A stretch of DNA of 64,000 nt from Thermodesulfobacteriota bacterium (GCA_026415035.1 JAOAHX010000008.1:16270-80269), one strand, 5' to 3'. Shown: positions 1 through 60,384, counted from the first letter of the stretch. Numbers and translations: made by a program. The notes: generated from the sequence alone by a model not told the origin.

Positions 1-708
1 CTCGATCCCCTTCAGAAGGGCCTCGCCCTGATGCTGATCACCGACCTCAGCACCCTCAAAGGGCTTCAGGTGGTGGAGCGAATCAAGTTGCAGGCCTTGG
101 TGGAGGAGATGGGATTTGGAACCGCAGGCCTGGTTCAGCCCGGAACGGCTCCCCGGGTGGGAAGACTCCTGGGAGCCAGGTGGATCATCGGGGGAGAGAT
201 CGTCAAAGGGTCGATCCACCTCAAATCGACCCTCCTCGACGTAGGGGAGCAGAGAATTGTGGGGCAGCCCCTCGTGACGGGGGAATTGGCAGACCTGTTT
301 CGTCTCGAAAAAGAGCTCCTCTTCAAGCTGATCGAATTTCTCAAGATCGAGGTCTCCCCGCAGGAGCGGGAGGAGCTTCGGAAATACATTTCCACCAATC
401 TTCGGGCTCTTACCCTCCTCTTCAAGGGGATTGAGGCAAGCGACCGGGGGCAGTACGAAAAAGCCGGCCAATTCTATGAGTCGGCTCTTAAAGAGGATCC
501 CAAGATCTTTGTGGCCCGGAGTGCCTTGCAGGAATTGATCCAGCTGAAATTGATCAAGCCGCAGAAGAGAACCCGTGAGCTTCTCAATTCCTTGAGAGAT
601 CGAAGCTCCCTCACGGATCAACTGACTCCCGAAGACGCAACGAGAAGGGGGCGGGGGCCTTCCGAGATAACCCCCTCCAAGGGCGAAAGGCCCTATAACC
701 CAGATTAA
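1..708 (+). CDS. 5'-truncated CDS: C-terminal part of a CsgG/LpoB/TolB-N-like domain fused to a TPR-like tail
   Basis: Frame 1 is open from the window edge (LDPLQKGLALMLITDLS...). The VVERxxLxxLxEEMGF and IIGGEIV segments resemble the CsgG-like fold found in two neighbouring proteins. The C-terminal LLFKGIEASDRGQYEKAGQFYESALKEDPK is TPR-like. The N-terminus lies off-window. Confidence 0.5.
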   Translation, partial: LDPLQKGLALMLITDLSTLKGLQVVERIKLQALVEEMGFGTAGLVQPGTAPRVGRLLGARWIIGGEIVKGSIHLKSTLLDVGEQRIVGQPLVTGELADLFRLEKELLFKLIEFLKIEVSPQEREELRKYISTNLRALTLLFKGIEASDRGQYEKAGQFYESALKEDPKIFVARSALQELIQLKLIKPQKRTRELLNSLRDRSSLTDQLTPEDATRRGRGPSEITPSKGERPYNPD

Positions 709-780: not shown

Positions 781-2010
781 ATGAAAACTTTCCTTAAATG
801 GGTCATTTTTTCTTTTCACATCCTTCTCGGTTTGGAGGCAAGTTTTGCAGTGGAGTTCGAGGCCCAGACATGGGTTCGGTCGGATTGGTGGAAGGATGAC
901 GTCAATCGTCAGGGTCAGCAGGTCTACATCCCCATCTGTGCCGAAGCCCGTTTTCAAAATCTATCCCTGAGGATCCTTACTGGGGAGGCTTACACCCGAC
1001 TCGACCCGCGTAGAAATCCAAATCGTTCCCTGGCCACTCTCCTTGACACCAAAGTAAACTTTTCCTATGAAATCATTGAGAAATTGCCGGTTGATCTCCT
1101 CGTGGGCCTCGATTTCAACTTGCCCACCGGTAAATCGAACCTCAAGCTTAAAGATCGGGGACTCCTCATGGATCCGGACCTTGTCTCCATTAACAAATTT
1201 GGAGAAGGTTTTAACGTAAATCCCAACCTTAGCATTGCGAAGGATTGGGGAAGGTTCGCTGCGGGAGTCGGTTTGGGTTATGTCTGGAGAGGAGAATACG
1301 ATTTTACCACTCAGGTTTTGGAAATCAACGACTTCTTATTCGGAAGAATTATTAAATTTTATGCCCGGGATTATGATCCGGGGGAGATCTTCAATATCAA
1401 TGCTGAGCTCCGTTATGATGTTTTGCCGAGATTCCAGGGTCGTCTTTACAGCCAGTATGTCTGGTATGGCCGGGACAGGCTGAAGAAAAAGGACTTTTAT
1501 CAGGAAGGTGATCTTTGGATGGTTGGCATGGGGCTCCAATATTCCCAAGAGGAGTGGGAGGTGGAGATCACCTTAAGAGGGCTTCTCCGAGGGAAGAGCA
1601 AAGTGAAACAAGACCCAGGAGATGTTAGCTTGATTCCTCCGGACCGGTGGTATCTCTATGGACTCCGCCAGCCCATCCGGACCGAACCCAAAAACAGCCA
1701 CGGCGACGAATGGGTGGCGGATCTTTCGATCCGATATTTTCTCGACGAAAAGACCGCGCTGAAATCCTTTCTCCAAGGGCTTTACGTCACCAAAAACGAC
1801 TATCCCTTCGGCTCGCCCCGTTTCCTAGGGAGACGAGAGAAAGGCTCCCTCGGTCTCGGCCTCTCCAGGGTGTTGCATCCCTCGCTCCAGGGAGAGCTTA
1901 TCGGCAGAGCCTTCCTCATGCATGACGAAGAACGCTTTATGCCGGAATTTCAGAGCGAGCGGAATTACCGGGGATATTCCGTCGGTCTCTACCTGACCGG
2001 AAAGTTTTGA
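781..2010 (+). CDS. outer-membrane beta-barrel protein (signal peptide, C-terminal Phe)
   Basis: N-terminal hydrophobic signal MKTFLKWVIFSFHILLGLEASFA. Alternating amphipathic strands rich in Y/W/G/N. Ends ...LYLTGKF, a typical OMP C-terminal signature. An AGGAG-like RBS lies upstream. Confidence 0.55.
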   Translation: MKTFLKWVIFSFHILLGLEASFAVEFEAQTWVRSDWWKDDVNRQGQQVYIPICAEARFQNLSLRILTGEAYTRLDPRRNPNRSLATLLDTKVNFSYEIIEKLPVDLLVGLDFNLPTGKSNLKLKDRGLLMDPDLVSINKFGEGFNVNPNLSIAKDWGRFAAGVGLGYVWRGEYDFTTQVLEINDFLFGRIIKFYARDYDPGEIFNINAELRYDVLPRFQGRLYSQYVWYGRDRLKKKDFYQEGDLWMVGMGLQYSQEEWEVEITLRGLLRGKSKVKQDPGDVSLIPPDRWYLYGLRQPIRTEPKNSHGDEWVADLSIRYFLDEKTALKSFLQGLYVTKNDYPFGSPRFLGRREKGSLGLGLSRVLHPSLQGELIGRAFLMHDEERFMPEFQSERNYRGYSVGLYLTGKF

Positions 2011-2013
2011 ACC

Positions 2014-2514
2014 CTACCGAAGAAGTTCTTCGGCGGCCTTCCTCGTCGCCTCCATCCACCCTTCAAGGCTACCGGAGGCGGAAGTTTTCTGGACCGCCCT
2101 TCTCACCCTTCCGGTTTCGACTTCCACGAGCCTCAAATCGAGGCGCATCTGACCTCCGATGACCTGATAGCCGCCGAAGACCATCTGCTTCGCCCCGAGC
2201 ATTTTTCCCAGTCTCAGCCGGGTCGCTTCGTCGACCAAGGCGGTGGACCCCAGACGAAGCTCTTCAAGGGCAAGCAGAAGGCGCTGCCTCTCGACCACGA
2301 CATACTCCCTGCGCTCCTTCAGAAATTCGATGATCTTCCCGGCAAGGATTTCTCCCATGGGAAGCCTTGTCCCTTTGGCCGGGCTCAGATCATCGAGGTC
2401 CCAGACGGCGATCGTTTCTACCTTCTGCTCCCCCGGGGGGGAAGTGGCGCAGCCGGTCAGAATCCATAAGCCACACAAGAAAAAAATCGTCCCGGTCAGG
2501 TCTCTCTTCCTCAT
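2014..2514 (-). CDS. lipoprotein with CsgG/LpoB-like domain
   Basis: Lipobox LTGC after a signal peptide. Segments IAVWDLDDLS..., KIIEFLKERREYVVVERQRLLLALEELRLGSTALVD and LRLVEVETGRV follow the CsgG N-domain pattern. Confidence 0.6.
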   Translation of the reverse strand: MRKRDLTGTIFFLCGLWILTGCATSPPGEQKVETIAVWDLDDLSPAKGTRLPMGEILAGKIIEFLKERREYVVVERQRLLLALEELRLGSTALVDEATRLRLGKMLGAKQMVFGGYQVIGGQMRLDLRLVEVETGRVRRAVQKTSASGSLEGWMEATRKAAEELLR

Positions 2515-2518: not shown

Positions 2519-4474
2519 CTATCTCAATGCGACCTCCTCGGCCCTCTCCTGGACTTTGTCGTCTGTCCGGAAGGGCCGGGTCTGTTCGAGGATCTTGGCA
2601 TAGCTGAAATCTGGTTCGACCCGAACGACCTCCATCCGGCCCGCAGACTTGGGAGTGCCCCGTAGCGTCTTACCCTTATAGGTTATCTCTTCCCCTTCCT
2701 CGATCACTTCCAGTTTGGTTCCCACCACCATTCCATGTTTCGCCCCGAGATTGAGGACGACCTGGTCCCCCGTGACTTTGACGATATATCCCCTCAGAGG
2801 ATATTTGGTCACGACCGTCTTCAAAATCTCCCGATTCAGCTGAAAGAGTTCCTTTTCGAGAGAGGCTTGGGGAGGGATCTGTCGGGTGGTGACCTGCGGG
2901 ATGGCCGTGGTCTCGGTATCGATCAGCCTCAGATTGAGGAGCGTGCCCTGGGGGAGATAGAGGAGCGAGCCTGTGCCGATCAGCCTGGCCGCCAGAACCC
3001 GCCCCAATTTAAGGGCGGTCTCCGGATTGGCCAGTTCGGACGAGCCGATGTTCAGCTCCTCAAGGAGGCGGTCGATCAAAATCCTTTCGACGACCTTGAC
3101 CCTTCCGGAGGCATTGAGATGGTCCGCCAACTGACTCATCAGCACGGCTGAAAGACCATCTCTTTCGGCAAGGCCTCCCCTTTCCTGAAAATCGACAAAG
3201 GTCAGCACCATAGGGGGAGACGTCCAGGCGTCTTCGACCTTCCTGGCCTCTTCCTTTTGTGCCCTGAAGCGGGCGGCCAGCTCCTTCACAAGTTGATCGA
3301 CCCGTTCTTTTCGTTTGAGGTCTTTCTGAAGATCGATCATCTCCTGGGCCTTTTTGGCAAGGACGGCGGCAAAGGTGTCCGTCTTATCGAGGGCCAGGGC
3401 CATCCGGTAGGATTCGAGGGCCTGATCCCATTTGCCCTCTTTTTCAAAAGTCAACCCCTTATTGGTCGTCCCTTCGATATAATAAGGATCGATCTGGATC
3501 GCCTGGTCGTAGAATTCTCGAGCTTTACCATATTGTCCCGCGTTGGCGTAATAGCGTCCCATTTGATTGTAGCGGAGGGCCTCCTGATAGGGTTCGACGG
3601 TCTTTTTCTGTATCCCCTTCTGATATTCCGTCTCGGCCTCCTTCCTCTTATCCTGGGCGTAAAGCAGGTCGCCCTTGACGACGTGGACATAGGCTCGATC
3701 AGGGGCCTTCTGCTCGACCTCCCTCGCCAGCTGAAGGGCCTTTTCGGATTCCCCCTTCTTCGCATAGACCGTGGCGAGCCCCTCTTTGCCAAGGATCTCT
3801 CCCTGGCCACCCTTTTGAGAGACCTCTTTGAAGACCTCCTCAGCCTCCTTCAGGTTCTGCTCTTTGAGGGCCGCATAGCCCTTAACGGTCTGGGCTTTCA
3901 CGTTCTGGGGATTCTTCTTCACGACATCGTCGCTGATGGCCTTGGCAAGCTTGGTCTGCCTCCTCTGGAGCTCCCTTTCGGCGACCCGAACGAGCATCGC
4001 CTCCGTCGTCTTTCCCCCTCCCTGGAAGTAGTCGAGGACCTTCAGGCCTGGACCGAGGATACAAACCGTGGGAAGGACCTGCCGGGCCCGGTAAAGGTCG
4101 CTCACCTTGGCAACGTCCTGCAGAACCGGGAAGAGGATCCCCGTGCTTTCGACGAATTTCGAGACCTTCTCCCTGGAGGAGAGGGTGATGGCCCATACCG
4201 TCATCGACGCTTCCTGATGTTGTCTGGCAAGCTGGTGGAGGGTGAAGAGCCCCTCCTGGCTGGGCCGGGAGTCGACATCGAAAAAGTAGAGGATCACCAT
4301 CGATCGGTCCTTCAGCATCGAGAGGTCATGGACTTGGCCTTTCAGGTCTTTCAACGAGAAGGTGGGGGCGCTCTGGCCCGGTGCGACCTGTCCATAGCTT
4401 ACGGGCATGCCCAAGATCAGGAAGACCGTTACCGACATCAAGAAGCGACCCAGGTTGAGCACTGGCTTTTTCAT
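2519..4474 (-). CDS. secreted multidomain protein: thioredoxin/AhpC-TSA-like N-domain, TPR repeats, CsgG/LpoB-like domain, C-terminal beta domain
   Basis: Signal peptide MKKPVLNLGRFLMSVTVFLILG. FSLKDLKGQVHDLSMLKDRSMVILYFF is Trx-fold (AhpC/TSA)-like. The central region has Ala/Tyr-rich TPR-like repeats (YAKKGESEKALQLAREV...YYANAGQYGKAREFYDQAIQIDP). LSAVLMSQLADHLNASGRVKVVERILIDRLLEELNIGSSELAN and LRLIDTETTAI are CsgG-like. Confidence 0.65.
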   Translation of the reverse strand: MKKPVLNLGRFLMSVTVFLILGMPVSYGQVAPGQSAPTFSLKDLKGQVHDLSMLKDRSMVILYFFDVDSRPSQEGLFTLHQLARQHQEASMTVWAITLSSREKVSKFVESTGILFPVLQDVAKVSDLYRARQVLPTVCILGPGLKVLDYFQGGGKTTEAMLVRVAERELQRRQTKLAKAISDDVVKKNPQNVKAQTVKGYAALKEQNLKEAEEVFKEVSQKGGQGEILGKEGLATVYAKKGESEKALQLAREVEQKAPDRAYVHVVKGDLLYAQDKRKEAETEYQKGIQKKTVEPYQEALRYNQMGRYYANAGQYGKAREFYDQAIQIDPYYIEGTTNKGLTFEKEGKWDQALESYRMALALDKTDTFAAVLAKKAQEMIDLQKDLKRKERVDQLVKELAARFRAQKEEARKVEDAWTSPPMVLTFVDFQERGGLAERDGLSAVLMSQLADHLNASGRVKVVERILIDRLLEELNIGSSELANPETALKLGRVLAARLIGTGSLLYLPQGTLLNLRLIDTETTAIPQVTTRQIPPQASLEKELFQLNREILKTVVTKYPLRGYIVKVTGDQVVLNLGAKHGMVVGTKLEVIEEGEEITYKGKTLRGTPKSAGRMEVVRVEPDFSYAKILEQTRPFRTDDKVQERAEEVALR

Positions 4475-4486: not shown

Positions 4487-5671
4487 TCATCTATTCCCTT
4501 CGCGGATGGGAATCAACCGCACCTGCAAAGGGGTTTCTCCTTCCTCGGTGATCTGGACCTGCGCCTCCCAGTCGTGGTGGTCTGGATGGGTGATCCGAAC
4601 CTCATGCTTGCCGACCGGAAGGCTCAAGGTTAAAGGGGCATTCCCTTTAAAAGCACCGTCGATGAAGACCTGTGCTCCGAGGGGATGACTCTCGATCCTC
4701 AACGAGCCCAGGAGGACCTTTTCCACGACATCCGGTTTCGACCCTTTCGAAGTGACAAACCAATAGCCTGTCCCCCCCAGGCCCAAAAGCATCAGAACCA
4801 ATATCAGCATGGGGAGAAAGCGCGATCTCGCCCCTTTCTCCTCTTGGGAGACGGAGGGCTTCTCTTCGACCGATTCCAGCAAGGCCCGGGCCAGGGCAGA
4901 ACCCGTTTGGAAGCGTTCCTCCGGCCCCTTTTTGAGGCATCTCAAAATGGTTTGAGACAGTTTCGGGGGAATGGACGGGTTGATCTGGGAAGGCTCGGGA
5001 GGATGGGCCTGGACGATGGCCTGGAAGATGGCCGACATATTTTCGCCCACAAAGGGCCTCTGACGGGTGGCCAGTTCGTAGAGCACGATGCCCAAAGAGA
5101 AGAGGTCCGAACGGCCATCCACCGGACGCCCCTGGACCTGCTCTGGCGACATGTAGGCTGGGGTGCCCAGGATCTCCCCGGCTTGCGTCTGAACCAGGGC
5201 CGAAGGGTCTTCGATGTGGGCGATTCCGAAATCGGTGATCTTGATCTGGCCGTCTTTTTGGAGGAGGATGTTGCTCGGTTTCACATCCCTGTGGACGATC
5301 CCCTTCTGATGGGCATAACCGAGGGTTTCGGCGATCTGGGCCCCCCAACGGGCGATCTCCTGAAAAGAGACCTTTCCCTCCTGAACCACCCGATTTAGCG
5401 GGATCCCTTCGAGGAGCTCCATGGCGATGAAGATGGTCCCATGGTCTTCCCCTACATCATAGATCGTCACGATGTTCGGGTGGGAAAGCCTGCCGATCGC
5501 CCTGGCTTCTTTCAGAAAGCGTTGGACAAAGGCCTCGCTGGTGACCCGGTCTTCCCGGAGCACCTTGAGGGCGATGGACCGGTCGATCTGGGGATCGTAC
5601 GCCTTATAGACGACCCCCATCGACCCTTTGCCCAGCTCTTCGATAATCTCGTAACGGCCGTATTTCATCAA
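4487..5671 (-). CDS. Ser/Thr protein kinase (Hanks-type) with TM segment and extracytoplasmic PEGA-like domain
   Basis: Kinase motifs are present: LGKGSMGVVYKA (Gly loop), ALK (VAIK-like), HRDVKPSNILL (catalytic loop), DFG, SPEQ. A Pro-rich linker leads to a TM helix (RFLPMLILVLMLLGLGGTGYWFV), then LGSLRIESHPLGAQVFIDGAFKGNAPLTLSLPVGKHEVRI, which is PEGA-like. Confidence 0.85.
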   Translation of the reverse strand: MMKYGRYEIIEELGKGSMGVVYKAYDPQIDRSIALKVLREDRVTSEAFVQRFLKEARAIGRLSHPNIVTIYDVGEDHGTIFIAMELLEGIPLNRVVQEGKVSFQEIARWGAQIAETLGYAHQKGIVHRDVKPSNILLQKDGQIKITDFGIAHIEDPSALVQTQAGEILGTPAYMSPEQVQGRPVDGRSDLFSLGIVLYELATRQRPFVGENMSAIFQAIVQAHPPEPSQINPSIPPKLSQTILRCLKKGPEERFQTGSALARALLESVEEKPSVSQEEKGARSRFLPMLILVLMLLGLGGTGYWFVTSKGSKPDVVEKVLLGSLRIESHPLGAQVFIDGAFKGNAPLTLSLPVGKHEVRITHPDHHDWEAQVQITEEGETPLQVRLIPIREGNR

Positions 5672-5674
5672 GGG

Positions 5675-6631
5675 TCAATCCTTCATGAAGTCCGCGAGGG
5701 TGGAGACGGGGATGAGAAACCCGATCCCCGAAACCCCCCGATACCTCCCCTTGATCATCCCCACCAAATGCCCTTCACGGTCAAAGACGGGGCTTCCGCT
5801 GCTTCCCGGTTGAATCTCCATTTCCGCCTGATAAAGGGGAAGATCATTGACCCACCTCATGGGGCCGTCGATCGTACCGGTGAGGAAGCGTCTCGTATGA
5901 TTGGGACAGCCGAGGGCGAAGATTTTATCTCCGTGTTGGAGGGGTCTCCGAATGGGCGAAAGGGGAACCGAGACATTCCATTTCGAGCGGATATCGATCA
6001 GAGTCAGATCCCGGCGGGGATCGATCTTCTTGATGGAACCCCGTAGGATCCGTCCATCCGGAAGGGTGACCGAGACCTCCGAGATGCCTTTGAGATCGTG
6101 CGCGGTGGATAGGATGAGGCCTTTGCGGTCCGCGACGAAGCCGGTAAACTGCATCGTTTCCTTCCCGTTGGAGACGCCCAGACAGACCAGGGCCTCCATT
6201 TTCTGCTGGACTTTCTGTGGAATCGTCTCAGAAACTTTCTCGGAGGCTCTCGGACATTCTTCTTTGAATTGGCCCTCAAGAAAGGCCTCAAGGTCAGCCA
6301 GGACCTCCTCCGAAGTTCTCATCTCCCCTTCCCCACGAAGGACCTGGACCTGGGTGGCTAAGGCCGATTTCGGCCTGAGGACGAGGACCAACACCTCCTT
6401 CTCTTTTTTGATTCCCCTGAGGTGAATCTCCAACCCTTCCCTCTCCTGTCGGTGAACCTCTAAGCCCCCTTGGAGAAGCCATCGGACGAGGAGATGCTCG
6501 ATCTCTCTTACGGGAAGGGGGAGAAGCTTCTCTTCGGCCCGAGGGAAAACAGGGCTCGCGGAGAAGATCAAGAGGAGCCAGAGGAGAACAGCCCGACATC
6601 GGTTCGGCCTCACCTTTCCTCCATCTCGCAC
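5675..6631 (-). CDS. secreted trypsin-like serine peptidase (S1 family)
   Basis: Signal peptide is present. LILSTAHDL carries the catalytic His context and GSSGSPVFDREGHLVGM is the GDSGGP-like Ser motif. The 5' end overlaps the 3' end of the PP2C gene by about 22 nt. Confidence 0.7.
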   Translation of the reverse strand: MRDGGKVRPNRCRAVLLWLLLIFSASPVFPRAEEKLLPLPVREIEHLLVRWLLQGGLEVHRQEREGLEIHLRGIKKEKEVLVLVLRPKSALATQVQVLRGEGEMRTSEEVLADLEAFLEGQFKEECPRASEKVSETIPQKVQQKMEALVCLGVSNGKETMQFTGFVADRKGLILSTAHDLKGISEVSVTLPDGRILRGSIKKIDPRRDLTLIDIRSKWNVSVPLSPIRRPLQHGDKIFALGCPNHTRRFLTGTIDGPMRWVNDLPLYQAEMEIQPGSSGSPVFDREGHLVGMIKGRYRGVSGIGFLIPVSTLADFMKD

Positions 6632-7344
6632 AAGACCACGGTGATATTGTCCTTTCCCCCTGCGGCCTTGGCCAGATCGATCAGGCCCTCCCCTTTTTGA
6701 TCGAGGCGGAGGGAGGAGTGGAGGAGGTTCAAGATTTCATCATCCTCCACCATATCGGTCAACCCATCCGAGCAGAGCAGAAAGAGGTCGCCCGGAAAGA
6801 CCCTCCCTCTGATCAAATCCAAGGCTAAGGCCTCTTCAATGCCAACGGCCCGGAGGATGACGTGCCGCATGGGATGGTGTTTTGCCTCCTCTTTCTGGAG
6901 CAGCCCCTGATCGATCTGTGCCTGAAGATAAGAGTGGTCCCGGGTCAGCTGTCTCAATTCTCCTTTTCTCAGGAGGTAGGTCCGGCTATCGCCCACATGG
7001 CCTAAGACGTAGGTCTGATTCGAGAAGGTGATCAGTTCTGCCGTGCAACCGAGGCCCTGATGATGGGGATGGGTGGCCGAATATTTCAGGATCTTTTCAT
7101 TGGCAAGCTGGAAGGCCTTTTGGACCGACCTGGAGCTCTCCTCTCCGGGGCGTAGGATTGAGGTGGAAAAGACCTCGAGGGCGGTATCGATAAAGATTTG
7201 GCTTGCGACTTCCCCTGCGGCCGCCCCCCCCATGCCATCGGCAACCACAAAGAGATTTAATTCGGGTTTTATGAGGAAGGCGTCTTCGTTGTTGGCCCGT
7301 TTCAAGCCCGGATCGGACCTGCCGTAAGACCGTATTTCAAACAT
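6610..7344 (-). CDS. PP2C-family Ser/Thr protein phosphatase
   Basis: GRSDPGLKRANNEDAF, VADGMGGAAAGEVAS, LCSDGL and GGKDNITVVL are the canonical PPM/PP2C motifs. Confidence 0.85.
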   Translation of the reverse strand: MFEIRSYGRSDPGLKRANNEDAFLIKPELNLFVVADGMGGAAAGEVASQIFIDTALEVFSTSILRPGEESSRSVQKAFQLANEKILKYSATHPHHQGLGCTAELITFSNQTYVLGHVGDSRTYLLRKGELRQLTRDHSYLQAQIDQGLLQKEEAKHHPMRHVILRAVGIEEALALDLIRGRVFPGDLFLLCSDGLTDMVEDDEILNLLHSSLRLDQKGEGLIDLAKAAGGKDNITVVLCEMEER

Positions 7345-7428
7345 GACTCATTATACAAAAATTGTCTCTGTATTGGCAATAATTTTTCTTGACCCGGGGG
7401 ACGGGTTGGTTATAATTTATTCGGACCG

Positions 7429-8313
7429 ATGAAGAAAGCCCCGTTAATCATAGCCCAATTTTTCCACATCAAAGGGCCCTTGCCTGTGAACGGGAAGGAG
7501 GCGGAGTTTTCGAGCCCTTCCATCACCATCGGCCGACATCCCTCGAGCCAGCTCCGTTTTCCCGGAGATCTCACCTATATCTCCCGCCAGCATGCCGAGA
7601 TCGTCCGCGAGGGCAATCAATTTAAGCTGATCGATCACAGCACCAACGGCACCTACGTGAATGGGAAAAGGGTGAAGGAGATTTTCCTGAAAGACGGAGA
7701 TGTCCTGATGTTCGGCGAGGGAGGGCCTCAGGTGAGTTTCCTCACCCGGATGGCAGAGGGGAGCCTCGAAAGCGAGGCGGTGCCCGTCCCACCCCCTCGT
7801 GTGACCGAAAAGGAGGTTGGAGGAGAGCCGCCCCGGATCGAGAAACCTTCCATACCCTCCCCACCTCCCGAACCAAAGATTTCGGAGGTCTCCCCTCAGG
7901 TGGTTAAAGTACCGCTGATCATCCAGTACGGACCCACCATCCGCTCTTTCAAACAATTACCCGTCACCATCGGAAAAGGCCCTGCCTGCGACTATCCCTT
8001 GGAACATCCCGCCCTCCATGACCAACACGCCCAGATTTTTTTCAGCGAGGGCCAATACTACGTCAGAGACCTGACCGGCCAGAAATTGGTCCATATCGAC
8101 CGAAGGCCCATCGACTTCCAGGCCCCTTTAAAGGCAAGCGACGAACTGGCACTGACCCCCCAAGGACCCTTCTTTCGATTCTTCGGCGAGGGCCGCCTGG
8201 GCGAGGTGGAGGAAGTCAAAGAGGAAGCGCCTATGGAGGCCCCAAAGACTTCCCCGGAGCCATCGGAAGAAAAATCTGTCCTTTCGAAGTTAAAAAAGAT
8301 CTTTAAATCCTGA
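7429..8313 (+). CDS. protein with two FHA domains
   Basis: ITIGRHPSSQLRF...ISRQHAEIVREGNQFKLIDHSTNGTYVNGKRV and VTIGKGPACDYPL...AQIFFSEGQYYVRDLTGQKLVHIDRRPI are both FHA signatures. A Pro-rich linker sits between them. The gene is divergent from the kinase/phosphatase operon. Confidence 0.8.
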   Translation: MKKAPLIIAQFFHIKGPLPVNGKEAEFSSPSITIGRHPSSQLRFPGDLTYISRQHAEIVREGNQFKLIDHSTNGTYVNGKRVKEIFLKDGDVLMFGEGGPQVSFLTRMAEGSLESEAVPVPPPRVTEKEVGGEPPRIEKPSIPSPPPEPKISEVSPQVVKVPLIIQYGPTIRSFKQLPVTIGKGPACDYPLEHPALHDQHAQIFFSEGQYYVRDLTGQKLVHIDRRPIDFQAPLKASDELALTPQGPFFRFFGEGRLGEVEEVKEEAPMEAPKTSPEPSEEKSVLSKLKKIFKS

Positions 8314-8347: not shown

Positions 8348-9913
8348 ATGTCCATTCCCTCACTCCCCTTCAAGGTCCTGGCCTTGGGCCCTTTTGTCCC
8401 CTCGGGAGAGGAGGTCATGTTTCGGGACCCGATTCGGGTCGATCCCGAGCAGCCCGATCAGGCCATCGAAGCCCTCCATCTCCAGCTTTCCATCGCCCTT
8501 CCCGGGAACCTCTGCGCCTGGGATCGACTTGCTTTCCCTATCCGGAGGTTAAAGGACTTCCACCCAGACTCCCTCCTCGAACACCATTCCTCTCTCAAGA
8601 ATCTCCTCGATGCGAAAAGGCTCGTTCACACCTCGAAGGCCCAGGGACTGCCTGACGAAGAGGTCTATCGCCAACTCCAAAACTGGCCAGACCTTCCATT
8701 CGACCTCCGCCCTCCTCCCTCCCGGACCCAGGAACACGCCTCAAGCCCGGTGGACCGTCTCTTAGAGATGGTCGCCATGCCCGGGGAGGAAACTGCCTCC
8801 CCGGCAGCCGCTGTGCCTCTTTCAACCCAGATCGATTCATTCCTCCAACAGGTCTTGAGGCAGATCTTCTCCGACCCCGAATTCCGAAAGGTAGAATCGA
8901 CTCACCAAGGCCTCCACTTCCTCCTGAGGCAAGCCAAATCGGAGAAGGAGGTCGCTTTCGAAATCCTCCCGGTCTCCTTTGAAACCCTTGAGGAGATCCT
9001 CGATCATCTCACCCTCTCGAAGCTCGACGACCTGCCCTCCCTGGTCATTCTCGACCTCCCCTTTGACCACTCGATGAGGAAATTGGAACTCCTTGAAAAA
9101 GTGGCCCTCTTTTCCGAAACCCTCCTCGTCCCCACGCTCTGCTGGGTGAGCCCCAAATTTCTCTTTCTCGAACGTTGGGAGGAGATGGACAAGCTCCCGT
9201 TCCTCCCCCACTATATCGATGAGCCCGCTTTTGCCAAATGGCGACGCCTGAGAGGGCTCACCTCCTCGAGATGGATCGGCCTTTTCTGCAATCGATTTTT
9301 GATCCGATATCCCTATGGCCCGGACAATCGGGTGCGATCCCTGCCCTTCACCGAATCTGATCCCCTTTGGATCTCTCCCGTATGGGCTGCCGCCAGCCTC
9401 ATCCTCCTCAGCCATCTCCAATTCGGCTGGCCCACCCGATTCACCGACTGGCAGAGCCTTCGGTTGACCGATTTAGCCACCCATCTCATAGGGAACGACC
9501 GGGGGATTGCGACCGAGGCCGATTTCGGTGACGAGAGGATCGACCAGCTGATCCGGATCGGGATCATTCCGCTGGCCTCGTTTCTGAACCGAGACATTGC
9601 CTTTATTCCCCGTGAGACAACGGCTGGAGGAACGGCCTTGAGCTGGCAACTCTTCCTCTCCAGGACCTCTCAATTCCTACTCGGGTGCCGGGATCATCTC
9701 GGATCGGATCTCTCTCCCTCCACCCTCGAAGAGAAGCTGAGGGAGGCCTTCCTTCGGTTCTATGAACGATCTGGCCGCCAGTTTCCCCAATCCCTTGAAA
9801 TCACAGCGAAGCGACCGGCCCCTGGAGAGCCTATCCAATTGAGAATTCGAATCGACCCCCCCAAACAGATTTTACCTTCAGGAGAGAGACTCGAGCTGGA
9901 ATTGCGCTGGTGA
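8348..9913 (+). CDS. 521-aa protein with a TssB(VipA/ImpB)-like N-terminal region fused to an uncharacterized ~390-aa C-terminal region
   Basis: N-terminal LPFKVLALGPF..., LHLQLSIALPGNL and PIRRLKDFHPDSLLEHHSSLKNLLDAKRL parallel the TssB family motifs LPLKLLVLGDF, RLSLSVP and FRSLKDFSPDAV...ELRKLLELR. The C-terminal region has no motif I can name. A GGAGG RBS precedes the ATG. Confidence 0.6.
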   Translation: MSIPSLPFKVLALGPFVPSGEEVMFRDPIRVDPEQPDQAIEALHLQLSIALPGNLCAWDRLAFPIRRLKDFHPDSLLEHHSSLKNLLDAKRLVHTSKAQGLPDEEVYRQLQNWPDLPFDLRPPPSRTQEHASSPVDRLLEMVAMPGEETASPAAAVPLSTQIDSFLQQVLRQIFSDPEFRKVESTHQGLHFLLRQAKSEKEVAFEILPVSFETLEEILDHLTLSKLDDLPSLVILDLPFDHSMRKLELLEKVALFSETLLVPTLCWVSPKFLFLERWEEMDKLPFLPHYIDEPAFAKWRRLRGLTSSRWIGLFCNRFLIRYPYGPDNRVRSLPFTESDPLWISPVWAAASLILLSHLQFGWPTRFTDWQSLRLTDLATHLIGNDRGIATEADFGDERIDQLIRIGIIPLASFLNRDIAFIPRETTAGGTALSWQLFLSRTSQFLLGCRDHLGSDLSPSTLEEKLREAFLRFYERSGRQFPQSLEITAKRPAPGEPIQLRIRIDPPKQILPSGERLELELRW

Positions 9914-9974
9914 AGGGGATTGTGATCCCAAGTTTGACACCCCATCGGGCCATGTGATATAAATTTCTATAGGC

Positions 9975-10130
9975 ATTCAGGAGAGGGAACCCCGTGAGAG
10001 TCGGGGACGGCCACGCCGCTGTGATCGGGGACGAAACCTGCCGAAGACCACTGGTCTTTGAATAAAAGACTGGGAAGGGGCAGGGAGGCCCAAAGGACGT
10101 TGGGCCGAGTAGGTCGATCCGTCAGTCAGA
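9975..10130 (+). promoter_or_regulatory. cobalamin (B12) riboswitch aptamer
   Basis: GGGAACCCCGTGAGAGTCGGGGACGGCCACGCCGCTGTGA matches the GGGAAnnnGGUGnAAnUCC...CCCGCCaCUGU core. ACCACTGG ... GGGAAGGGGC matches the B12 box. The 3' element is CAGTCAGAAAACCTGCC. It lies upstream of tonB and the B12-type ABC importer. Confidence 0.75.
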
Positions 10131-10202
10131 AAACCTGCCTGGATGCGCTTCACGCATAGGTCTTCGGTGGAAGGCTGTGAAGGGTCATTTAAAATAAAAA
10201 AA

Positions 10203-10234
10203 CCCGCTCTTTCTTCCGAAGAGCGGGTTTTTTT
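10203..10234 (+). terminator. intrinsic terminator (riboswitch expression platform)
   Basis: Stem CCCGCTCTT, loop TCTTCCG, stem AAGAGCGGG, followed by TTTTTTT. Located between the aptamer and the tonB start codon. Confidence 0.7.
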
Positions 10235-10256
10235 ATGCCACCTTAGAATTCGCAAC

Positions 10257-11042
10257 ATGGAGCGCTCCTCCATAGTTAAACGCTTCTTACCCCTATCGTT
10301 GGGAACCCACCTCTTCTTCGTGGGTCTCCTTTCCCTCATCACGCAGGAGGGGAAAGCCCCGACCTTCTCCAAGGTCAACTTGGAGGTCTCCTTTCTGCAG
10401 GAGGCCAAAGAGGAACGAAGAACGCCCGAAGGCGGAAAAGTCGAAAGGACCCTCAAGCGTTCCGAAAGGAGAGGAGAGGAATTGGGCGAGAAGGGGCGAG
10501 AACGAACTCTGGAGGAGAGGGAGGATAAATGGCAGGACCACCCGACAGAGGTTCCTCCACTTCCCCTACCTGCTCAGACCGAGGCCGTTGCCTTGTCTTT
10601 AAACCTCACCCCGTCTCTCCCGATCGAAGGGGAGATACCGAAGAAAGAGGAGAACCATTCCGAGAGGGTTCTGGTCGCCTCCCCCGGAAGCGTTGTTTCT
10701 CCAACCGACATGGGAAACCCCTCCGACGGCCTAATGAAGCGATCCCCTTCCCTCCCAGCAAATGAGCCTGTCCTGATCCAACCCCGATACGCCAGCAATC
10801 CAAAACCCCCTTATCCCAAAGAGGCAAAGAGACTGGGCTTCGAGGGCGAGGTTCTTCTCAGAGTGGAGGTCCTCTCCAATGGCAGGGTAGGAGAGATCGA
10901 GGTGAAGCGTTCCTCTGGATATAAGATCCTGGATCAATCGGCAGTGGCTGCGGTCAAGGAATGGAGGTTTATCCCGGCCAGGATGGGCGAAACCCCTGTC
11001 TCCGTATGGGTCAACATCCCTGTGCTCTTTAGGCTTCGATGA
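10257..11042 (+). CDS. tonB: TonB-family energy transducer
   Basis: N-terminal TM anchor, Pro/Glu/Lys-rich spacer, C-terminal PPYPKEAKRLGFEGEVLLRVEVLSNGRVGEIEVKRSSGYKILDQSAVAAVKEWRF (TonB C-terminal domain). Start chosen at the ATG after the terminator (10257); the ORF track extends to 10143. Confidence 0.75.
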   Translation: MERSSIVKRFLPLSLGTHLFFVGLLSLITQEGKAPTFSKVNLEVSFLQEAKEERRTPEGGKVERTLKRSERRGEELGEKGRERTLEEREDKWQDHPTEVPPLPLPAQTEAVALSLNLTPSLPIEGEIPKKEENHSERVLVASPGSVVSPTDMGNPSDGLMKRSPSLPANEPVLIQPRYASNPKPPYPKEAKRLGFEGEVLLRVEVLSNGRVGEIEVKRSSGYKILDQSAVAAVKEWRFIPARMGETPVSVWVNIPVLFRLR

Positions 11043-11977
11043 AAAGATTTTGCATCTCTCTTACAAAGATTTGGGCCACGTTTTGGCCAATCGCCCTCCT
11101 CTTCTCGCCCCTCCTCGCCGCTTCGGTCTCCTATCCCGCGACCCTCACCTTCAGGGACGAAGTGGGAAGGGAGGTGGCCCTTCCTTTTCCTCCTCGGAGG
11201 ATCGTCTCCCTTGCCCCCAACATCACCGAAATCCTCTTCAGCCTCGGCCTTGATGAGGAGGTGGTCGGGGTTTCGATCCACTGTAATTATCCGGAAAAGG
11301 CGAAGACCAAGGCGAGGGTGGGAAGTTATATCCAGATCGACGTCGAAAGAGTGCTCTCGCTAAGGCCAGACCTGATCATCGCCACTGGCGCGGGAAACCC
11401 AAAGGAGGTCGTGGAACGTCTCGAACGGTTGGGGATCCCTTCTTTCGTCATCTTTCCAAAGAGGGTGGACGATGTCTTTCAGAGTATCCGCCATGTGGGT
11501 CAGGTGGTAGGAAGGGAGAAAGAGGCGCTTCACCTCATCCGGTCCCTGCAGAAGAGGAAGGAGAAGGTGGTGGCGGCGACCCAAGGACTTCCCCGGCCAC
11601 GGGTCTTTCTCCAGATCGGGGAACAGCCCATCGTGACGGTTGGAAAAGGAAGTTTTGGAGACGACCTCATCCGCCTCGCCGGGGGGGAGAACGTTGCAGG
11701 AGAGGACCGCGAGGCCTATCCCAGATGGGGCATGGAGGAGATCCTGAGGAGATCTCCGGAGGTGATCCTCATCAGCTCCATGAACCCGAAGGGAAACTAT
11801 CAAAAGGCCCTTCAGGACTGGGAGCGCTGGAAGACGATCCCTGCGGTCCGGACAAAGAGGGTCCACCTGATCGACTCCGACCTGATCGATCGACCCTCCC
11901 CGAGGATCGTAGAGGGCCTGGAGGAGATGGCAAAGGCCATCCATCCGAACCGGTTCCCCAAAACGATCCCTCCATAG
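11039..11977 (+). CDS. periplasmic binding protein of cobalamin/siderophore ABC importer (BtuF-like)
   Basis: Signal peptide. RIVSLAPNITEILFSLGLDEEVVGVS is typical of the BtuF/FhuD PBP family. Overlaps tonB by 4 nt (translational coupling). Confidence 0.75.
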   Translation: MKRFCISLTKIWATFWPIALLFSPLLAASVSYPATLTFRDEVGREVALPFPPRRIVSLAPNITEILFSLGLDEEVVGVSIHCNYPEKAKTKARVGSYIQIDVERVLSLRPDLIIATGAGNPKEVVERLERLGIPSFVIFPKRVDDVFQSIRHVGQVVGREKEALHLIRSLQKRKEKVVAATQGLPRPRVFLQIGEQPIVTVGKGSFGDDLIRLAGGENVAGEDREAYPRWGMEEILRRSPEVILISSMNPKGNYQKALQDWERWKTIPAVRTKRVHLIDSDLIDRPSPRIVEGLEEMAKAIHPNRFPKTIPP

Positions 11978-12009
11978 CCCTTCCAAGAAGTTGGCTCGGA
12001 TAGAGACCG

Positions 12010-13074
12010 ATGGTTTTCTCCGATAATCGCCAAAAGATCCCATTGAACGTCCTTCGGCCTAAAAAAGTGATCTCGATCTGCGCTATCCTCACCCTCCTCC
12101 TGATGGCCATCGTCCTCACTTCGGTCATGGTGGGTAGCGTCAAGCTCGACCCACGGCGCAGCCTTTCCATCCTTGTCGAATCATTTTGGGGCCGTCCGGG
12201 GGAGGGGACAGAGACCGAGGCCGCAATCCTCCTCTCCATCCGTCTCCCCAGGGTGCTGCTCGCAGCGGGGGTGGGAGCCGGGCTCTCTCTTTCGGGCGCC
12301 ATCTTCCAGGCCCTTCTGAGAAACCCTTTGGCCGATCCCTATATCCTCGGCGTATCGAGCGGCTCGGCCGTGGGAGCGATCCTCGCCATCCTCCTCGGTT
12401 GGGGGAGCCTCTCCTTCGGACTCCCCCTGGCCTCCTTTGCCGGAGCGGTCCTCACGATCGGCCTCGTCTTCCAGTTTGGAAAGCAGGATGGCCGGATCCA
12501 TCCCAATACCCTTCTGCTGGCCGGTGTGATTACAGGGTCGTTTCTTTCGGCCCTCATCATGTTCTTCCTCTCCATCTCGCAGAGGGAGGAGCTTAGAACG
12601 ATCGTCTTTTGGTTAATGGGAGACTTTAGTTTCACTCATCCTCGGTCGCCCCTCATCATCCTGCCTTATCTCGCCATAGGCTTTTTCATCCTTTACCGGC
12701 GGTCACGCCAGCTCAATCTAATCCTTTCGGGCGAGGAAAGCGCCCTCCAATTGGGGGTGGAGGTGGAGCGATTGAAGGTCATCTCCTATCTCTGCGCCTC
12801 CTTGATCACCGCAGCCTCCGTCTCCCTCTGCGGTCTCATCGGATTTGTCGGGCTGATCATCCCCCATGCCACCCGGCTCCTTTTCGGTCCAGACCACAGG
12901 CTCTTGCTTCCTGCCTCTGGCCTGATCGGAGCTTCCTATCTCATCCTCTGCGATACGTTGGCGAGGACGATTCTCTCTCCCGTGGAACTCCCCGTTGGGG
13001 TGATCACCGCGGCCTTCGGCGGGCCCTTCTTTCTTTACCTTCTCAGGAGAAGCGTGGGGGTGAGGCCCCTATGA
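12010..13074 (+). CDS. FecCD/BtuC-family ABC permease
   Basis: Polytopic membrane protein with the FecCD signature region (LLAGVITGSFLSALIMFFL, GLIGFVGLIIPH). Confidence 0.85.
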   Translation: MVFSDNRQKIPLNVLRPKKVISICAILTLLLMAIVLTSVMVGSVKLDPRRSLSILVESFWGRPGEGTETEAAILLSIRLPRVLLAAGVGAGLSLSGAIFQALLRNPLADPYILGVSSGSAVGAILAILLGWGSLSFGLPLASFAGAVLTIGLVFQFGKQDGRIHPNTLLLAGVITGSFLSALIMFFLSISQREELRTIVFWLMGDFSFTHPRSPLIILPYLAIGFFILYRRSRQLNLILSGEESALQLGVEVERLKVISYLCASLITAASVSLCGLIGFVGLIIPHATRLLFGPDHRLLLPASGLIGASYLILCDTLARTILSPVELPVGVITAAFGGPFFLYLLRRSVGVRPL

Positions 13075-13850
13075 TCGACCTCCGCTCAATCGCTTTTCGC
13101 TACCGCAAGGATTGGGTCCTTGAGGAGATCTCTTTCCGGATCGAAAAGGGTGAATTTCTCGGCGTAATCGGTCCCAACGGCTCGGGAAAGAGCACCCTGC
13201 TGAAGCTCCTCTGCCGCGTCCTCACCCCACAGCGGGGCGAGGTCCTCATCAATTCCATCCCCTTGAGGGAGATGGGGCGCAGAGAGATTGCCCGGAGGAT
13301 CGCGGTGGTCCCCCAGGAGACGTATTCCCTATTTCCCTTCCGTGTGATAGAAATAGTGCTGATGGGGCGTTCTCCCTATATCAACCATCTCCTCTTCGAG
13401 AGCCCAGGGGATCTGGAGATTGCCAAAAGGGCGATGGAGTGGACCGAAACCCTCCCGGTTCAGAACCGGTTGATCGATGAGCTTTCGGGCGGCGAACGAA
13501 AGCGGGTCTTCATCGCCAGGGCCCTCGCCCAGGAACCGGAGGTGATCCTTCTTGACGAACCCACGGCCAACCTCGACATCCATCACCAGGCCGATTTTCT
13601 AAACCTCCTCCTCGCCCTCAACCGGGAAAGAGGCCTGACGATCGTCATGGCCCTCCACGACCTGAATATCGCTTCCGAATATTGCGATCGGCTCGTGCTT
13701 CTCCGGAACGGAAAGATTTACAACATGGGCCATCCTGCCGAAGTGATCACCCGGGAGGCGATCGAAGAGGTTTATGGCTGTGAGGTATGGGTGGACGAGC
13801 ATCCCGTCTCCCGAAAGCCGAGGGTCACCCTGCTGAGACCTCGACATTGA
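13071..13850 (+). CDS. ABC transporter ATP-binding protein (BtuD/FepC-like)
   Basis: Walker A GPNGSGKST, signature LSGGERKRV, Walker B ILLDEPTANLD. Overlaps the permease gene by 4 nt. Confidence 0.9.
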   Translation: MIDLRSIAFRYRKDWVLEEISFRIEKGEFLGVIGPNGSGKSTLLKLLCRVLTPQRGEVLINSIPLREMGRREIARRIAVVPQETYSLFPFRVIEIVLMGRSPYINHLLFESPGDLEIAKRAMEWTETLPVQNRLIDELSGGERKRVFIARALAQEPEVILLDEPTANLDIHHQADFLNLLLALNRERGLTIVMALHDLNIASEYCDRLVLLRNGKIYNMGHPAEVITREAIEEVYGCEVWVDEHPVSRKPRVTLLRPRH

Positions 13851-15178: not shown

Positions 15179-16138
15179 ATGGCGGAAGCAGAACATACCT
15201 TGGCGGTCTTCATCGATTTCGAAAACCTCGCCCTCGGGTTCAAGGGGAAGAAGGAGAAACGCTTCGACATCCAGAAGGTCCTCGAACGGCTGGTCGAGAA
15301 GGGGAAGATCATCGTGAAGAAGGCCTACGCCGACTGGGCGGAATATGCCGAATATAAGAAGCCCCTCCACGAGGCGGCCATCGAGTTGATCGAGATTCCG
15401 AAGCGCTCGATGAGCGGAAAGAATTCGGCCGACATCCGGCTCTGCGTCGATGCCATCGACCTCTGTTATTCCAAGGAACACATCGACACCTTCGTCATCG
15501 TCTCGGGCGACAGCGACTTCTCGCCCTTGGTCTCCAAACTGAAGGAGAACGGGAAGCGGGTCATCGGGCTGGGGATGAAGGAGTCAAGCTCCAACCTCTT
15601 GATCGACAACTGCGACGAGTTTATCTACTACGAAGACCTGGAGCGTTCCATCGGGACCCCTCCCAAGATCGAGAAGGACCTTCCCGAGAAGAAGAAGGAG
15701 GCCTTTCAACTCCTGGTCGATTCCGTCCTTGCCCTGGTCCGTGAGAATAAGGAGGTCCTCTGGTCTTCGCTTGTCAAGGAGACGATGAAGCGGAAGAAGC
15801 CCTCCTTCAACGAGTCCTACCACGGCTACCGGACCTTCAGTGATCTCCTCGAGGATGCGGAAAAGGAGGGGATCGTTCGTCTGAGGACCGACGCCCGCAG
15901 CGGCACCTATGTCATCGTCGGCTTCGGAAAGGAGGAGAAGAAGGAACCGCCTGCGGAATCGACAGAGAAGAAATCCCCGAAGGAGCGGAAGGCTCAGAGG
16001 TCCAGGTGGCGGTCCCGGCAGAAGAAAACAAACGCCGTTTCGGTGACGATGCCCTTAGACTCCGACCATCCTCCGTTGGAGACCCCAGATTACTCCGAAG
16101 GGGAGGAAACGGTCTTCGACCTCAAAGGTCAGGTCTGA
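15179..16138 (+). CDS. NYN-domain (LabA-like) protein with C-terminal OST-HTH/LOTUS-like domain
   Basis: LAVFIDFENL ... IVSGDSDFSPLVSKLKENGKRVIGLG is the NYN/LabA nuclease-fold signature. A C-terminal helical domain precedes a basic tail. Confidence 0.7.
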   Translation: MAEAEHTLAVFIDFENLALGFKGKKEKRFDIQKVLERLVEKGKIIVKKAYADWAEYAEYKKPLHEAAIELIEIPKRSMSGKNSADIRLCVDAIDLCYSKEHIDTFVIVSGDSDFSPLVSKLKENGKRVIGLGMKESSSNLLIDNCDEFIYYEDLERSIGTPPKIEKDLPEKKKEAFQLLVDSVLALVRENKEVLWSSLVKETMKRKKPSFNESYHGYRTFSDLLEDAEKEGIVRLRTDARSGTYVIVGFGKEEKKEPPAESTEKKSPKERKAQRSRWRSRQKKTNAVSVTMPLDSDHPPLETPDYSEGEETVFDLKGQV

Positions 16139-16164
16139 CCTCTCCGCGTCACGAGAAAACCTCG

Positions 16165-41289: not shown

Positions 41290-41407
41290 GGACCAATTAT
41301 TCTTGATTTACCCATTGCTGTCAAACGCCTTGGGTCCCTCTTTCTCCTTGACATGAAAAAGCCTTTTTTATTATTTTGGAACTGCTTTTCAGGGAGAGAG
41401 GTGGGAA

Positions 41408-43351: not shown

Positions 43352-44388
43352 TTCTCGGGACAAGGCTCCTCTTCGTCCTAACCTTTTTACCCTTGCTCAC
43401 GGGGTGCGGAAATCTCCTCTACCTTTCTCGATTGGGATGGCATCAGTCCTTTGTCACCTTTCGAAGCCTCCCCGTTGAAGAAGTCCTCGAGGAAGAGGGC
43501 CTCGACGAGGAGGCCCGAGGCAAGGTCCTCCTCATTCAGGAAGTGAAGCGGTTCGGAGAGAGGCGATTGGGACTGAAGGAGACGGGAAACTATACCAAAT
43601 TTTTCGAGGCCAGAGGGCCCATCCTCTTCCTCCTCACGGCGAGCGAGAAAGACCGTCTTCATCCCCATTCGTGGCATTTTCCCATCATCGGAAGGGTGAC
43701 CTACAAGAGCATCTTCACCCTGAAGGCCGCCTTGAAGGAGAAGCGCCTCCTGGAAGGCCGAGGCTTGGACGCCTATCTTCAAGCGGCAGCTGCCTACAGC
43801 ACCCTCGGATGGCTGAAGGACCCCATCTTTTCGACGATGCTCACCTGGGACGTCCCCACCCTGGTCAACGTCATCCTTCACGAGATGGTCCATGCCACGA
43901 TCTATTTCAAAGGCGAGACCGATCTCAACGAAAAGATAGCCACCTTCATCGCCAATCAAGGAACTCTCCAATTCCTTTCCGAGAGATACGGGCCCGATTC
44001 GAGGGAGGTCTCCCTTGCCCTGCAGTATCAAGAAGACGACCTCCTCTTTTCCCGGTGGGTCGAAAAGGCTTACCGGGAGTTATCCGAATTTTACGCTCAA
44101 CCCCTGTCAAGGGAGGAGAAATTGAAGGGACGGGAGGAGATCTTCGAGCGGCTCCGGGAGCAATTTGTCCAATTGCTGGGCCAGTTCAAAACGGACTGTT
44201 ATAGGGGATTCGAGAAGACGGAGTTCAACAACGCCGTGATCCTGGCCCACCGTCGATACGTCGGCCACCTCGAGGGCTTCGAGGAGCTTTACGAGCGATC
44301 GGGGAGAGAGCTGAAAAAGGTCGTGGATTACTTTAAGGAGATCAGGGCGAAGGGCGATTGGAAGGCCCTTTCCCCATTCAAGGAGTGA
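43348..44388 (+). CDS. lipoprotein, predicted zinc aminopeptidase-like (HExxH)
   Basis: Lipobox LTGC. The HEMVH zinc-binding motif fits the COG4324-like predicted-aminopeptidase architecture. The ATGA overlap with the permease stop (43348) fixes the start inside the longer ORF-track call. Confidence 0.6.
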   Translation: MILGTRLLFVLTFLPLLTGCGNLLYLSRLGWHQSFVTFRSLPVEEVLEEEGLDEEARGKVLLIQEVKRFGERRLGLKETGNYTKFFEARGPILFLLTASEKDRLHPHSWHFPIIGRVTYKSIFTLKAALKEKRLLEGRGLDAYLQAAAAYSTLGWLKDPIFSTMLTWDVPTLVNVILHEMVHATIYFKGETDLNEKIATFIANQGTLQFLSERYGPDSREVSLALQYQEDDLLFSRWVEKAYRELSEFYAQPLSREEKLKGREEIFERLREQFVQLLGQFKTDCYRGFEKTEFNNAVILAHRRYVGHLEGFEELYERSGRELKKVVDYFKEIRAKGDWKALSPFKE

Positions 44389-60380: not shown

Positions 60381-60384
60381 AACG

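Follow-up and report, generated by a model that had tools for sequence, protein, structure and literature searches.

A probable accessory type VI secretion module of Desulfobacterota with an embedded HtrA-like protease and a single-chain TssB+TssC sheath paralog

A 64,000-nt stretch of DNA from a Thermodesulfobacteriota bacterium (GCA_026415035.1 JAOAHX010000008.1:16270-80269; hereafter the window, in whose positions all coordinates are given) encodes a membrane Ser/Thr kinase, a serine protease, a PP2C phosphatase, a double-FHA protein and a 521-aa paralog of the T6SS (type VI secretion system) sheath that combines TssB and TssC in a single chain. This locus is likely to be a conserved accessory and regulatory T6SS module of the Desulfobacterota, and a variant of the threonine-phosphorylation pathway (TPP). 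Judging from the encoded proteins, the module probably switches T6SS firing on and off. A preliminary description of this DNA had proposed a T6SS-linked Thr-phosphorylation unit, and this proposal is supported by the FHA/fused-sheath gene pair, which lies near PAAR, VgrG or ClpV genes in about 20 related loci, and by FHA genes found at the heads of T6SS clusters. The same description had placed a kinase with a transmembrane (TM) segment and a PEGA domain, an S1 protease, a PP2C and a double-FHA protein in one compact divergent unit. All four genes were found at the positions given for them, each with strong domain matches, and they are arranged divergently. The overlap of 22 nt between the PP2C and protease genes, and the 3 nt between the protease stop and the kinase start, were likewise as described. 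The unit itself is larger, with a minus-strand operon that reaches position 2014: past the kinase, a 12-nt gap leads to the gene at 2519-4474 and a 4-nt gap from there to the gene at 2014-2514. Two further exported proteins are encoded just past this operon, at 1-708 and 781-2010. The gene that follows the FHA gene had been called TssB-like; it does encode a sheath homolog, but one in which TssB and TssC are fused. The features of the locus are as follows.

1-708, plus strand: CsgG-like exported protein, its 5' part cut by the window start (Pfam CsgG, E=1.8e-6)
781-2010, plus strand: 409-aa signal-peptide protein of no Pfam family, conserved in position
2014-2514, minus strand: CsgG-like lipoprotein of 166 aa with lipobox LTGC, closing the minus-strand operon (Pfam CsgG, E=1.2e-10)
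2519-4474, minus strand: 651-aa exported thioredoxin-like/TPR/CsgG-like protein (domain matches; orthologs of ~650 aa at the same position)
4487-5671, minus strand: Hanks-type Ser/Thr kinase with one TM segment and a periplasmic PEGA domain (Pkinase, E=1.7e-58; PEGA, E=8.9e-16)
5675-6631, minus strand: S1 serine protease, HtrA/DegS-like, predicted periplasmic (Trypsin_2, E=9e-19; hydrophobic N-terminal signal sequence)
6610-7344, minus strand: PP2C Ser/Thr phosphatase of the Stp1/IreP type, heading the minus-strand operon (NF033484 and Pfam PP2C)
7345-7428, no strand: divergent control region of 84 bp with back-to-back sigma70-like promoters, called as consensus matches only
7429-8313, plus strand: double-FHA protein (Pfam FHA in two stretches, E=5e-31)
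8348-9913, plus strand: 521-aa single-chain TssB+TssC sheath paralog (Pfam VipA and VipB)

Association with T6SS clusters and the FHA protein

The fused gene was found in 64 loci of species-representative genomes, all of them metagenome-assembled genomes (MAGs) and nearly all labelled Desulfobacterota or Deltaproteobacteria. Among the Desulfobacterota MAGs, the order of nine genes is kept in relatives with a fused protein that shares 45-62% identity with that of the window. Immediately upstream of the fused gene lies the FHA gene in 43 of 52 loci. Where at least 6 kb of upstream sequence was available (41 loci), this region was found to contain the PP2C gene in 24 cases, an orthologous PEGA kinase gene in 20, the protease gene in 13 and the gene for the 651-aa protein in 12.

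In 20 loci (fused-protein identity 34-52%), PAAR, DUF2169, VgrG or ClpV genes are found no more than 10 kb from the fused gene. By walking the contigs, three clusters (L072, L073 and L074) were found to be complete. The cluster order in the relatives is a 247-aa TagH-C-like protein, TssJ, TssK, TssL, TssM, TagF, TssA, TssB, TssC, Hcp, TssE, TssF, TssG, ClpV, VgrG and PAAR effectors, and each relative examined has a canonical TssB (161 aa) and TssC (~494 aa) in its main cluster. The fused protein is therefore an additional paralog rather than the sheath of the apparatus. In the case of L072, the fused and FHA genes are located, in convergent orientation, at the 3' end of the T6SS cluster; for L073, the module is found ~10 kb further along the same contig (L004); and for L074, the fused gene shares a 48-kb contig (P0031) with the cluster. 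The cognate T6SS clusters of the relatives examined contain TagF, and no FHA-bearing TagH, PpkA or PppA was found in them.

The window ends within a T6SS cluster of the same type. In agreement with the preliminary description, tssJ, tssK, tssL and the start of tssM lie ~50 kb from the module, at 60.3-64.0 kb, and the stretch from 10 to 59 kb holds housekeeping genes only and no T6SS genes.

59267-59647, plus strand: 126-aa E/A-T-V-[VI]-L repeat protein, first gene of the T6SS cluster (conserved place; repeats in orthologs)
59640-60380, plus strand: TagH C-terminal-domain-like protein without FHA (T6SS_FHA_C, 22.5 bits, just under the gathering score)
60337-60921, plus strand: tssJ (Pfam match)
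61009-62397, plus strand: tssK (Pfam match)
62408-63085, plus strand: tssL (Pfam match)
~63086-64000, plus strand: start of tssM, which runs off the window (tblastn against TssM, 72% identity)

The distance between these genes and the module had led to the suggestion that the apparatus is split over at least two loci. The fused TssB-TssC gene would then provide the working sheath, in keeping with its position directly after the FHA gene, with its genuine sheath fold, and with the lack of a visible tssB or tssC within the 64-kb window. A metagenome scan with the TssK of the window speaks against this reading: all close relatives (~30 loci) repeat the 5' gene order of window positions 59.3-64 kb and continue with TssM, TagF, TssA and the canonical TssB and TssC. 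Furthermore, ClpV (MCX8117639) is encoded on the 112,781-bp contig from which the window is taken, 61 proteins past the fused gene (MCX8117578) as counted from the protein accession offsets. This places it ten genes after TssL, a distance equal to that in the syntenic relatives, and the apparatus is therefore most probably not split. When the TssC of a relative was used as a protein query, canonical TssC was found on four other contigs, each with a copy of the fused gene as well; no match was listed on the contig of the window itself, probably due to clustering at 90% identity. Given also that the fused protein is without the donor arm of TssB and the ClpV-binding helix, and scores far under the TssB and TssC equivalog cutoffs (see below), we regard a split apparatus as very improbable. 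The main T6SS cluster of this genome is very probably complete, with the module displaced to 50 kb upstream of it.

The double-FHA protein provides a further connection to the T6SS. Its first FHA domain has the canonical phosphothreonine-binding residues (GR...SR.H...NGT), as found in the N-terminal domain of Fha1/TagH, and these are conserved in 47 orthologs; the second domain is degenerate. The best NCBIfam match is to the FHA part of TagH (TIGR03354, 80 bits against a cutoff of 120). Pfam gives no match to T6SS_FHA_C (PF20232) in this protein, and that domain is instead located in the separate gene at 59640-60380. The assignment of the latter is consistent with the ortholog in L112, which at 26.1 bits is over the T6SS_FHA_C gathering score of 23.7, and with its conserved position ahead of tssJ in the relatives. 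Preceding it, and overlapping it by 8 nt, is the gene for the 126-aa protein, which contains three E/A-T-V-[VI]-L repeats (at T40, T77 and T112); both place and overlap recur in ~20 metagenome loci. The repeat motif does not occur in the 31,789 other residues encoded in the window. Threonine with leucine at +3 is a classic FHA ligand pattern, and the 126-aa protein is thus a candidate phospho-acceptor and FHA ligand. Six metagenome loci (L112, L117, L119, L127, L128 and L134) have an FHA ortholog at the 5' head of the T6SS cluster, with the ETVIL-repeat protein, the TagH-C protein and TssJ coming next in this order. Canonical TagH therefore looks to be split into three genes, with the FHA protein of the window as its FHA part. 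Relatives of the repeat protein have four to five repeats in some cases, and some (L082, L112) are fused to a Cys-rich N-terminal domain of ~550 aa that belongs to no Pfam family.

The preliminary description had also allowed for the module regulating something else, which its genomic context makes less likely. An alternative is that the locus serves general envelope-stress or cell-envelope signalling unrelated to the T6SS, having co-opted a sheath-like protein, and that T6SS proximity in some genomes is incidental. Five to six of the products are exported, with domains of the CsgG/FlgO/LpoB-like, TPR and thioredoxin-like kinds. Desulfobacterota commonly have PEGA kinases outside the T6SS, and no T6SS gene is immediately adjacent either here or in the L004-L008 relatives. 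This has to be set against the 20 loci in which T6SS genes are adjacent, and against the FHA orthologs embedded at the head of T6SS clusters. It also leaves aside that the T6SS clusters have no FHA domain of their own yet possess TagF and a TagH-C-domain protein, and that the partner of the FHA protein is a homolog of the T6SS-type sheath, not the phage-type. We therefore consider a role confined to envelope signalling rather unlikely.

The single-chain TssB+TssC paralog

Pfam assigns residues 6-93 of the 521-aa protein to VipA and residues 232-420 to VipB, while in a comparison of a family profile with the PDB, residues 4-93 align with TssB chains and residues 148-420 with TssC chains. The AlphaFold2 (AF2) model (pLDDT 86.6) was aligned by Foldseek with TssC1, VipB and IglB over 403-467 columns, with TMt values of 0.65-0.71. 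Domains 1 and 2 of the sheath fold are both found, together with three C-terminal strands at residues 482-488, 497-503 and 515-520. The protein thus resembles TssB/TssC (VipA/VipB) in that its fold takes in the TssB core and almost the whole of TssC and keeps the C-terminal strands. It differs from them in being one chain of 521 aa, compared with ~655 aa for TssB plus TssC, in occurring in addition to the canonical pair, and in being coupled to an FHA gene. More than 240 homologs were identified, with a constant length of ~521 aa.

Alignment to the cognate canonical TssB and TssC of relatives places the first residues of the fused protein at TssB position 25, a start common to all 54 members of the family, and the N-terminal arm of TssB is therefore absent. 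A low-confidence linker then joins TssB residue ~145 to TssC residue ~41, so that the N-terminal helix of TssC is lacking; the first ~40 residues of TssC, including SLLDEIVQAT, are without a counterpart. Two TssC loops are also deleted. In solved sheaths, the TssB β1 arm is the donor strand of the inter-protofilament handshake, and the TssC N-terminal helix is the target of ClpV (PMC5807055). The equivalog scores are 107.6 bits against a cutoff of 271.5 for TssC (TIGR03355) and 24.8 against 97.25 for TssB (TIGR03358). A conserved motif at residues 133-143 (S-x-V-D-x-I-L-x-M-V) was considered as a possible ClpV-binding helix and rejected, as both the profile alignment and the spacing to the LESTW anchor put it on TssC 41-55, not on 18-27.

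Kinase, phosphatase and embedded protease

The catalytic motifs of the kinase are HRD127 and DFG147, and the kinase domain is followed by a single TM segment (~283-305) and the C-terminal PEGA domain. A Hanks kinase domain with both motifs and a subsequent TM segment is thus shared with PpkA. In contrast, a Pfam scan found no match in this kinase to the periplasmic von Willebrand A (vWA) domain of PpkA, in line with the preliminary description, which had named PEGA rather than vWA as the ectodomain. The kinase is near T6SS genes in the relatives, but 50 kb away from them in the window. With 247 bits against a cutoff of 230, the PP2C passes the NCBIfam Stp1/IreP model NF033484, and the pairing of an Stp1/IreP-type PP2C with a kinase that characterises PppA is found here within one operon.

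Between the PP2C and FHA genes, the predicted minus-strand promoter reads TTGCCA-18-TATAAT and its plus-strand counterpart TTGACC-16-TATAAT, each agreeing with the consensus at 11 of 12 positions. Both matches are kept in five relatives (L004, L006, L012, L013 and L015). The predicted promoters leave leaders of only 0-6 nt before the PP2C and FHA start codons, and the two transcripts therefore look leaderless.

The protease has a trypsin-fold domain with the His-Asp-Ser triad of the HtrA/DegP/DegS group (H178/D208/S278), which is invariant across the family members aligned. The top Foldseek matches of the AF2 model (pLDDT 88.9) are the protease domains of DegS-deltaPDZ, DegP, DegQ and HtrA1, with TMt values of 0.75-0.81. 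No PDZ domain was found by Pfam, NCBIfam or in the model, and the chain ends at residue 318 directly after the protease domain. The N-terminus instead forms a conserved, family-specific alpha/beta domain of ~90 aa. At 50% identity, the family falls into ~130 clusters, almost all with a length of 300-330 aa, and the protease scores far under every HtrA and DegS equivalog cutoff of NCBIfam. DegS converts an envelope signal into regulated proteolysis. Like DegS/HtrA proteases (its fold is also close to that of MucD), the present enzyme is predicted to be periplasmic with an intact triad, while it differs from them in having no membrane anchor and in carrying its own N-terminal domain in place of a PDZ.

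It could be argued that the protease is a housekeeping quality-control enzyme of the HtrA type that has hitch-hiked into the operon and has no signalling role. Its protease domain is generic and HtrA-like, and it is absent from nine loci with an orthologous kinase, from which it follows that the protease is not essential to every variant of the module. Nevertheless, in 16 distinct loci (window included) it is found, at ~30-45% identity, in the one position between PP2C and kinase, with the ends of its gene overlapping or abutting the neighbouring genes. In the rearranged locus L016, the protease, kinase, TPR and CsgG genes have shifted as a block to the other side of the fused sheath gene, the protease relocating with the kinase. 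Together with the constant length of a distinct family that has its own N-terminal domain and no PDZ, this makes the hitch-hiker explanation unlikely, and the protease can be taken as a real, conserved member of the module. In the kinases of the protease-less loci, no match to a fused protease domain was found. Three loci without the protease (L009, L010 and L061) retain a ~770-bp gap between the PP2C and kinase genes. When translated, this gap extends the kinase open reading frame (ORF) at its N-terminus by 176 aa with no similarity to the protease, and it could represent a replacement gene or a remnant.

The kinase, phosphatase and protease were also considered as an anti-phage defence system, as the kinase domain matches PD-T4-6 and mad6 of PADLOC (NCBIfam MADS6 falling below its cutoff) and the protease has a weak match to RT-Protease_XI. 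These matches span only the generic Hanks kinase or trypsin domains, and PADLOC gave no match for the FHA protein, the fused sheath protein, the 651-aa TPR protein or the lipoproteins. In view of the membrane anchor and periplasmic domain of the kinase and the T6SS context, we give a defence function next to no credence.

A possible checkpoint in sheath assembly, and companion genes

In the H1-T6SS of Pseudomonas aeruginosa, the TPP exerts post-translational control of assembly (PMC10482370). The module described here resembles that pathway (TagQRST-PpkA-PppA-Fha1, together with TagF) in its membrane Hanks kinase with a periplasmic sensor domain, its PP2C and its FHA protein, in having upstream exported or lipoprotein sensor components, and in the presence of TagF in the T6SS cluster. 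The two are distinguished by the ectodomain of the kinase (PEGA here, vWA in P. aeruginosa) and by the putative sensors, which are CsgG-like, TPR and thioredoxin-like proteins here and TagQRST in P. aeruginosa. Further differences are the HtrA-like protease within the operon, the coupling of the FHA gene to a fused sheath paralog, and an FHA protein that has two FHA domains and no T6SS_FHA_C, the C-domain and the Thr repeats being encoded by separate genes. In Agrobacterium tumefaciens and Vibrio alginolyticus, the target of PpkA is not the FHA protein but another T6SS component, TssL, and the FHA protein then docks on the phosphothreonine (PMC10482370). By analogy, the same logic may apply to the ETVIL-repeat protein, with the difference that TssL has no N-terminal extension here and the candidate acceptor is a separate small protein.

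Based on these comparisons, we propose that an envelope signal would be perceived by the exported proteins (CsgG-like, TPR and thioredoxin-like) together with the DegS-like protease, and that these would activate the kinase through its PEGA domain, probably by proteolysis. The kinase would then phosphorylate cytoplasmic Thr residues, the best candidates being the T-x-x-L repeats in the product of the first T6SS gene; the FHA protein itself may also serve as acceptor, or else the fused sheath protein, in a conserved E-T-T loop. Docking of FHA domain 1 on the phosphothreonine would bring the FHA/fused-sheath pair to the T6SS, or release it, and the PP2C would reset the switch. As it has no TssB β1 arm to donate and no ClpV-binding helix, the fused protomer would be expected to start, cap or block sheath polymerisation instead of propagating it. 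In its most specific form, which we put forward as a tentative possibility only, the FHA-coupled TssB+TssC protein would be a phosphorylation-controlled checkpoint protomer. It would accept the strands of its neighbours but be unable to donate an arm, could not be gripped by ClpV, and would nucleate, cap or poison the sheath, with kinase, PP2C and protease timing its delivery via FHA docking on the phosphorylated T-x-x-L repeats.

Extracellular contractile injection systems (eCIS) have several sheath paralogs per machine (Afp2/3/4, Pvc2/3/4), with specialised ones at the terminal layers. They may serve as an analogous precedent for a sheath protomer that does not propagate. The Afp and Pvc paralogs are phage-type single chains, whereas the present protein is a T6SS-type TssB+TssC fusion that has a canonical T6SS at its side and a connection to phospho-signalling.

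A number of points weigh against a regulatory T6SS module of this kind. The module is not directly next to the T6SS in the window (50 kb) or in Syntrophaceae-like relatives (~10 kb in L004/L073), and the protease is missing from the nine loci mentioned above although these have an orthologous PEGA kinase. As all the genomes are MAGs, absence of the module from T6SS-negative genomes is not demonstrable. With respect to the mechanism, this is derived from genomic context, the phospho-acceptors are candidates, entry of the fused protomer into the sheath is a supposition, and the promoters are predictions from consensus matches.

To our knowledge, post-translational control of T6SS firing is understood in a few Proteobacteria only, by way of TagQRST-PpkA-Fha1, RtkS, PpkA-TssL and TagF. 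The module is widespread in anaerobic Desulfobacterota (64 species-level genomes) and combines the known kinase/phosphatase/FHA logic with three parts that were not found described in the literature searched: a DegS-like protease in the kinase operon, other envelope sensors, and a one-piece sheath paralog that is without exactly the elements required for sheath propagation and recycling. Our literature searches found no description of a fused TssBC paralog, of a protease in a TPP operon or of a split TagH, and nothing relevant on PEGA in connection with the T6SS or on the T6SS of Desulfobacterota. Should the paralog act on sheath assembly, it would offer a new handle on the starting and stopping of contractile machines. 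If the checkpoint proposal is true, the T6SS would be controlled on a new principle, by means of a dedicated sheath paralog and with a TagH in three genes. The separate FHA, Thr-repeat and C-domain proteins of the split TagH would amount to a natural dissection of Fha1 function.

Among the exported companions, the protein at 1-708 has orthologs of ~300 aa with a signal peptide at the same position in L004, L006, L012, L013, L025 and L039. For the 409-aa protein, no match was found with Pfam or NCBIfam, and PDB sequence searches were also empty; the L006 ortholog has a weak Phenol_MetA_deg match, and the protein is possibly an outer-membrane barrel. The CsgG match of the 166-aa lipoprotein covers profile positions 5-97 only, and this protein is conserved in 13 loci. 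The 651-aa protein consists of a ResA-like thioredoxin fold followed by TPR and then CsgG-like and FlgT_C-like domains. In its thioredoxin-like domain, SRPS takes the place of the CxxC site of ResA/TlpA in all orthologs seen, and the fold is therefore probably redox-inactive.

In L004, L006 and L073, the region that bridges the module and the T6SS encodes conserved TPR/LysM, polysaccharide deacetylase and sCache-guanylate-cyclase-type proteins, as well as VWA-like and HEAT-like proteins and a second, TPR-containing Ser/Thr kinase. These conserved genes may constitute a further regulatory or effector layer. In the window, the fused sheath gene is directly followed by a cobalamin riboswitch.

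9930-10157, plus strand: cobalamin riboswitch, outside the module (RF00174, 77 bits; gathering score, 31.5)

The riboswitch is followed by genes for TonB, a periplasmic binding protein, FecCD and an ABC ATPase (operon 10143-13850). It opens and controls this separate B12-uptake operon and thus marks the 3' boundary of the module. Further along, two long ORFs overlap on opposite strands, at 41321-43363 (minus strand, 680 aa, without a Pfam match) and 41408-43351 (plus strand, 647 aa). At 15179-18015 (plus strand), a NYN-domain (RNase-like) gene and the gene for a 669-aa Kelch/beta-propeller protein that comes after and overlaps it look unrelated to the module.

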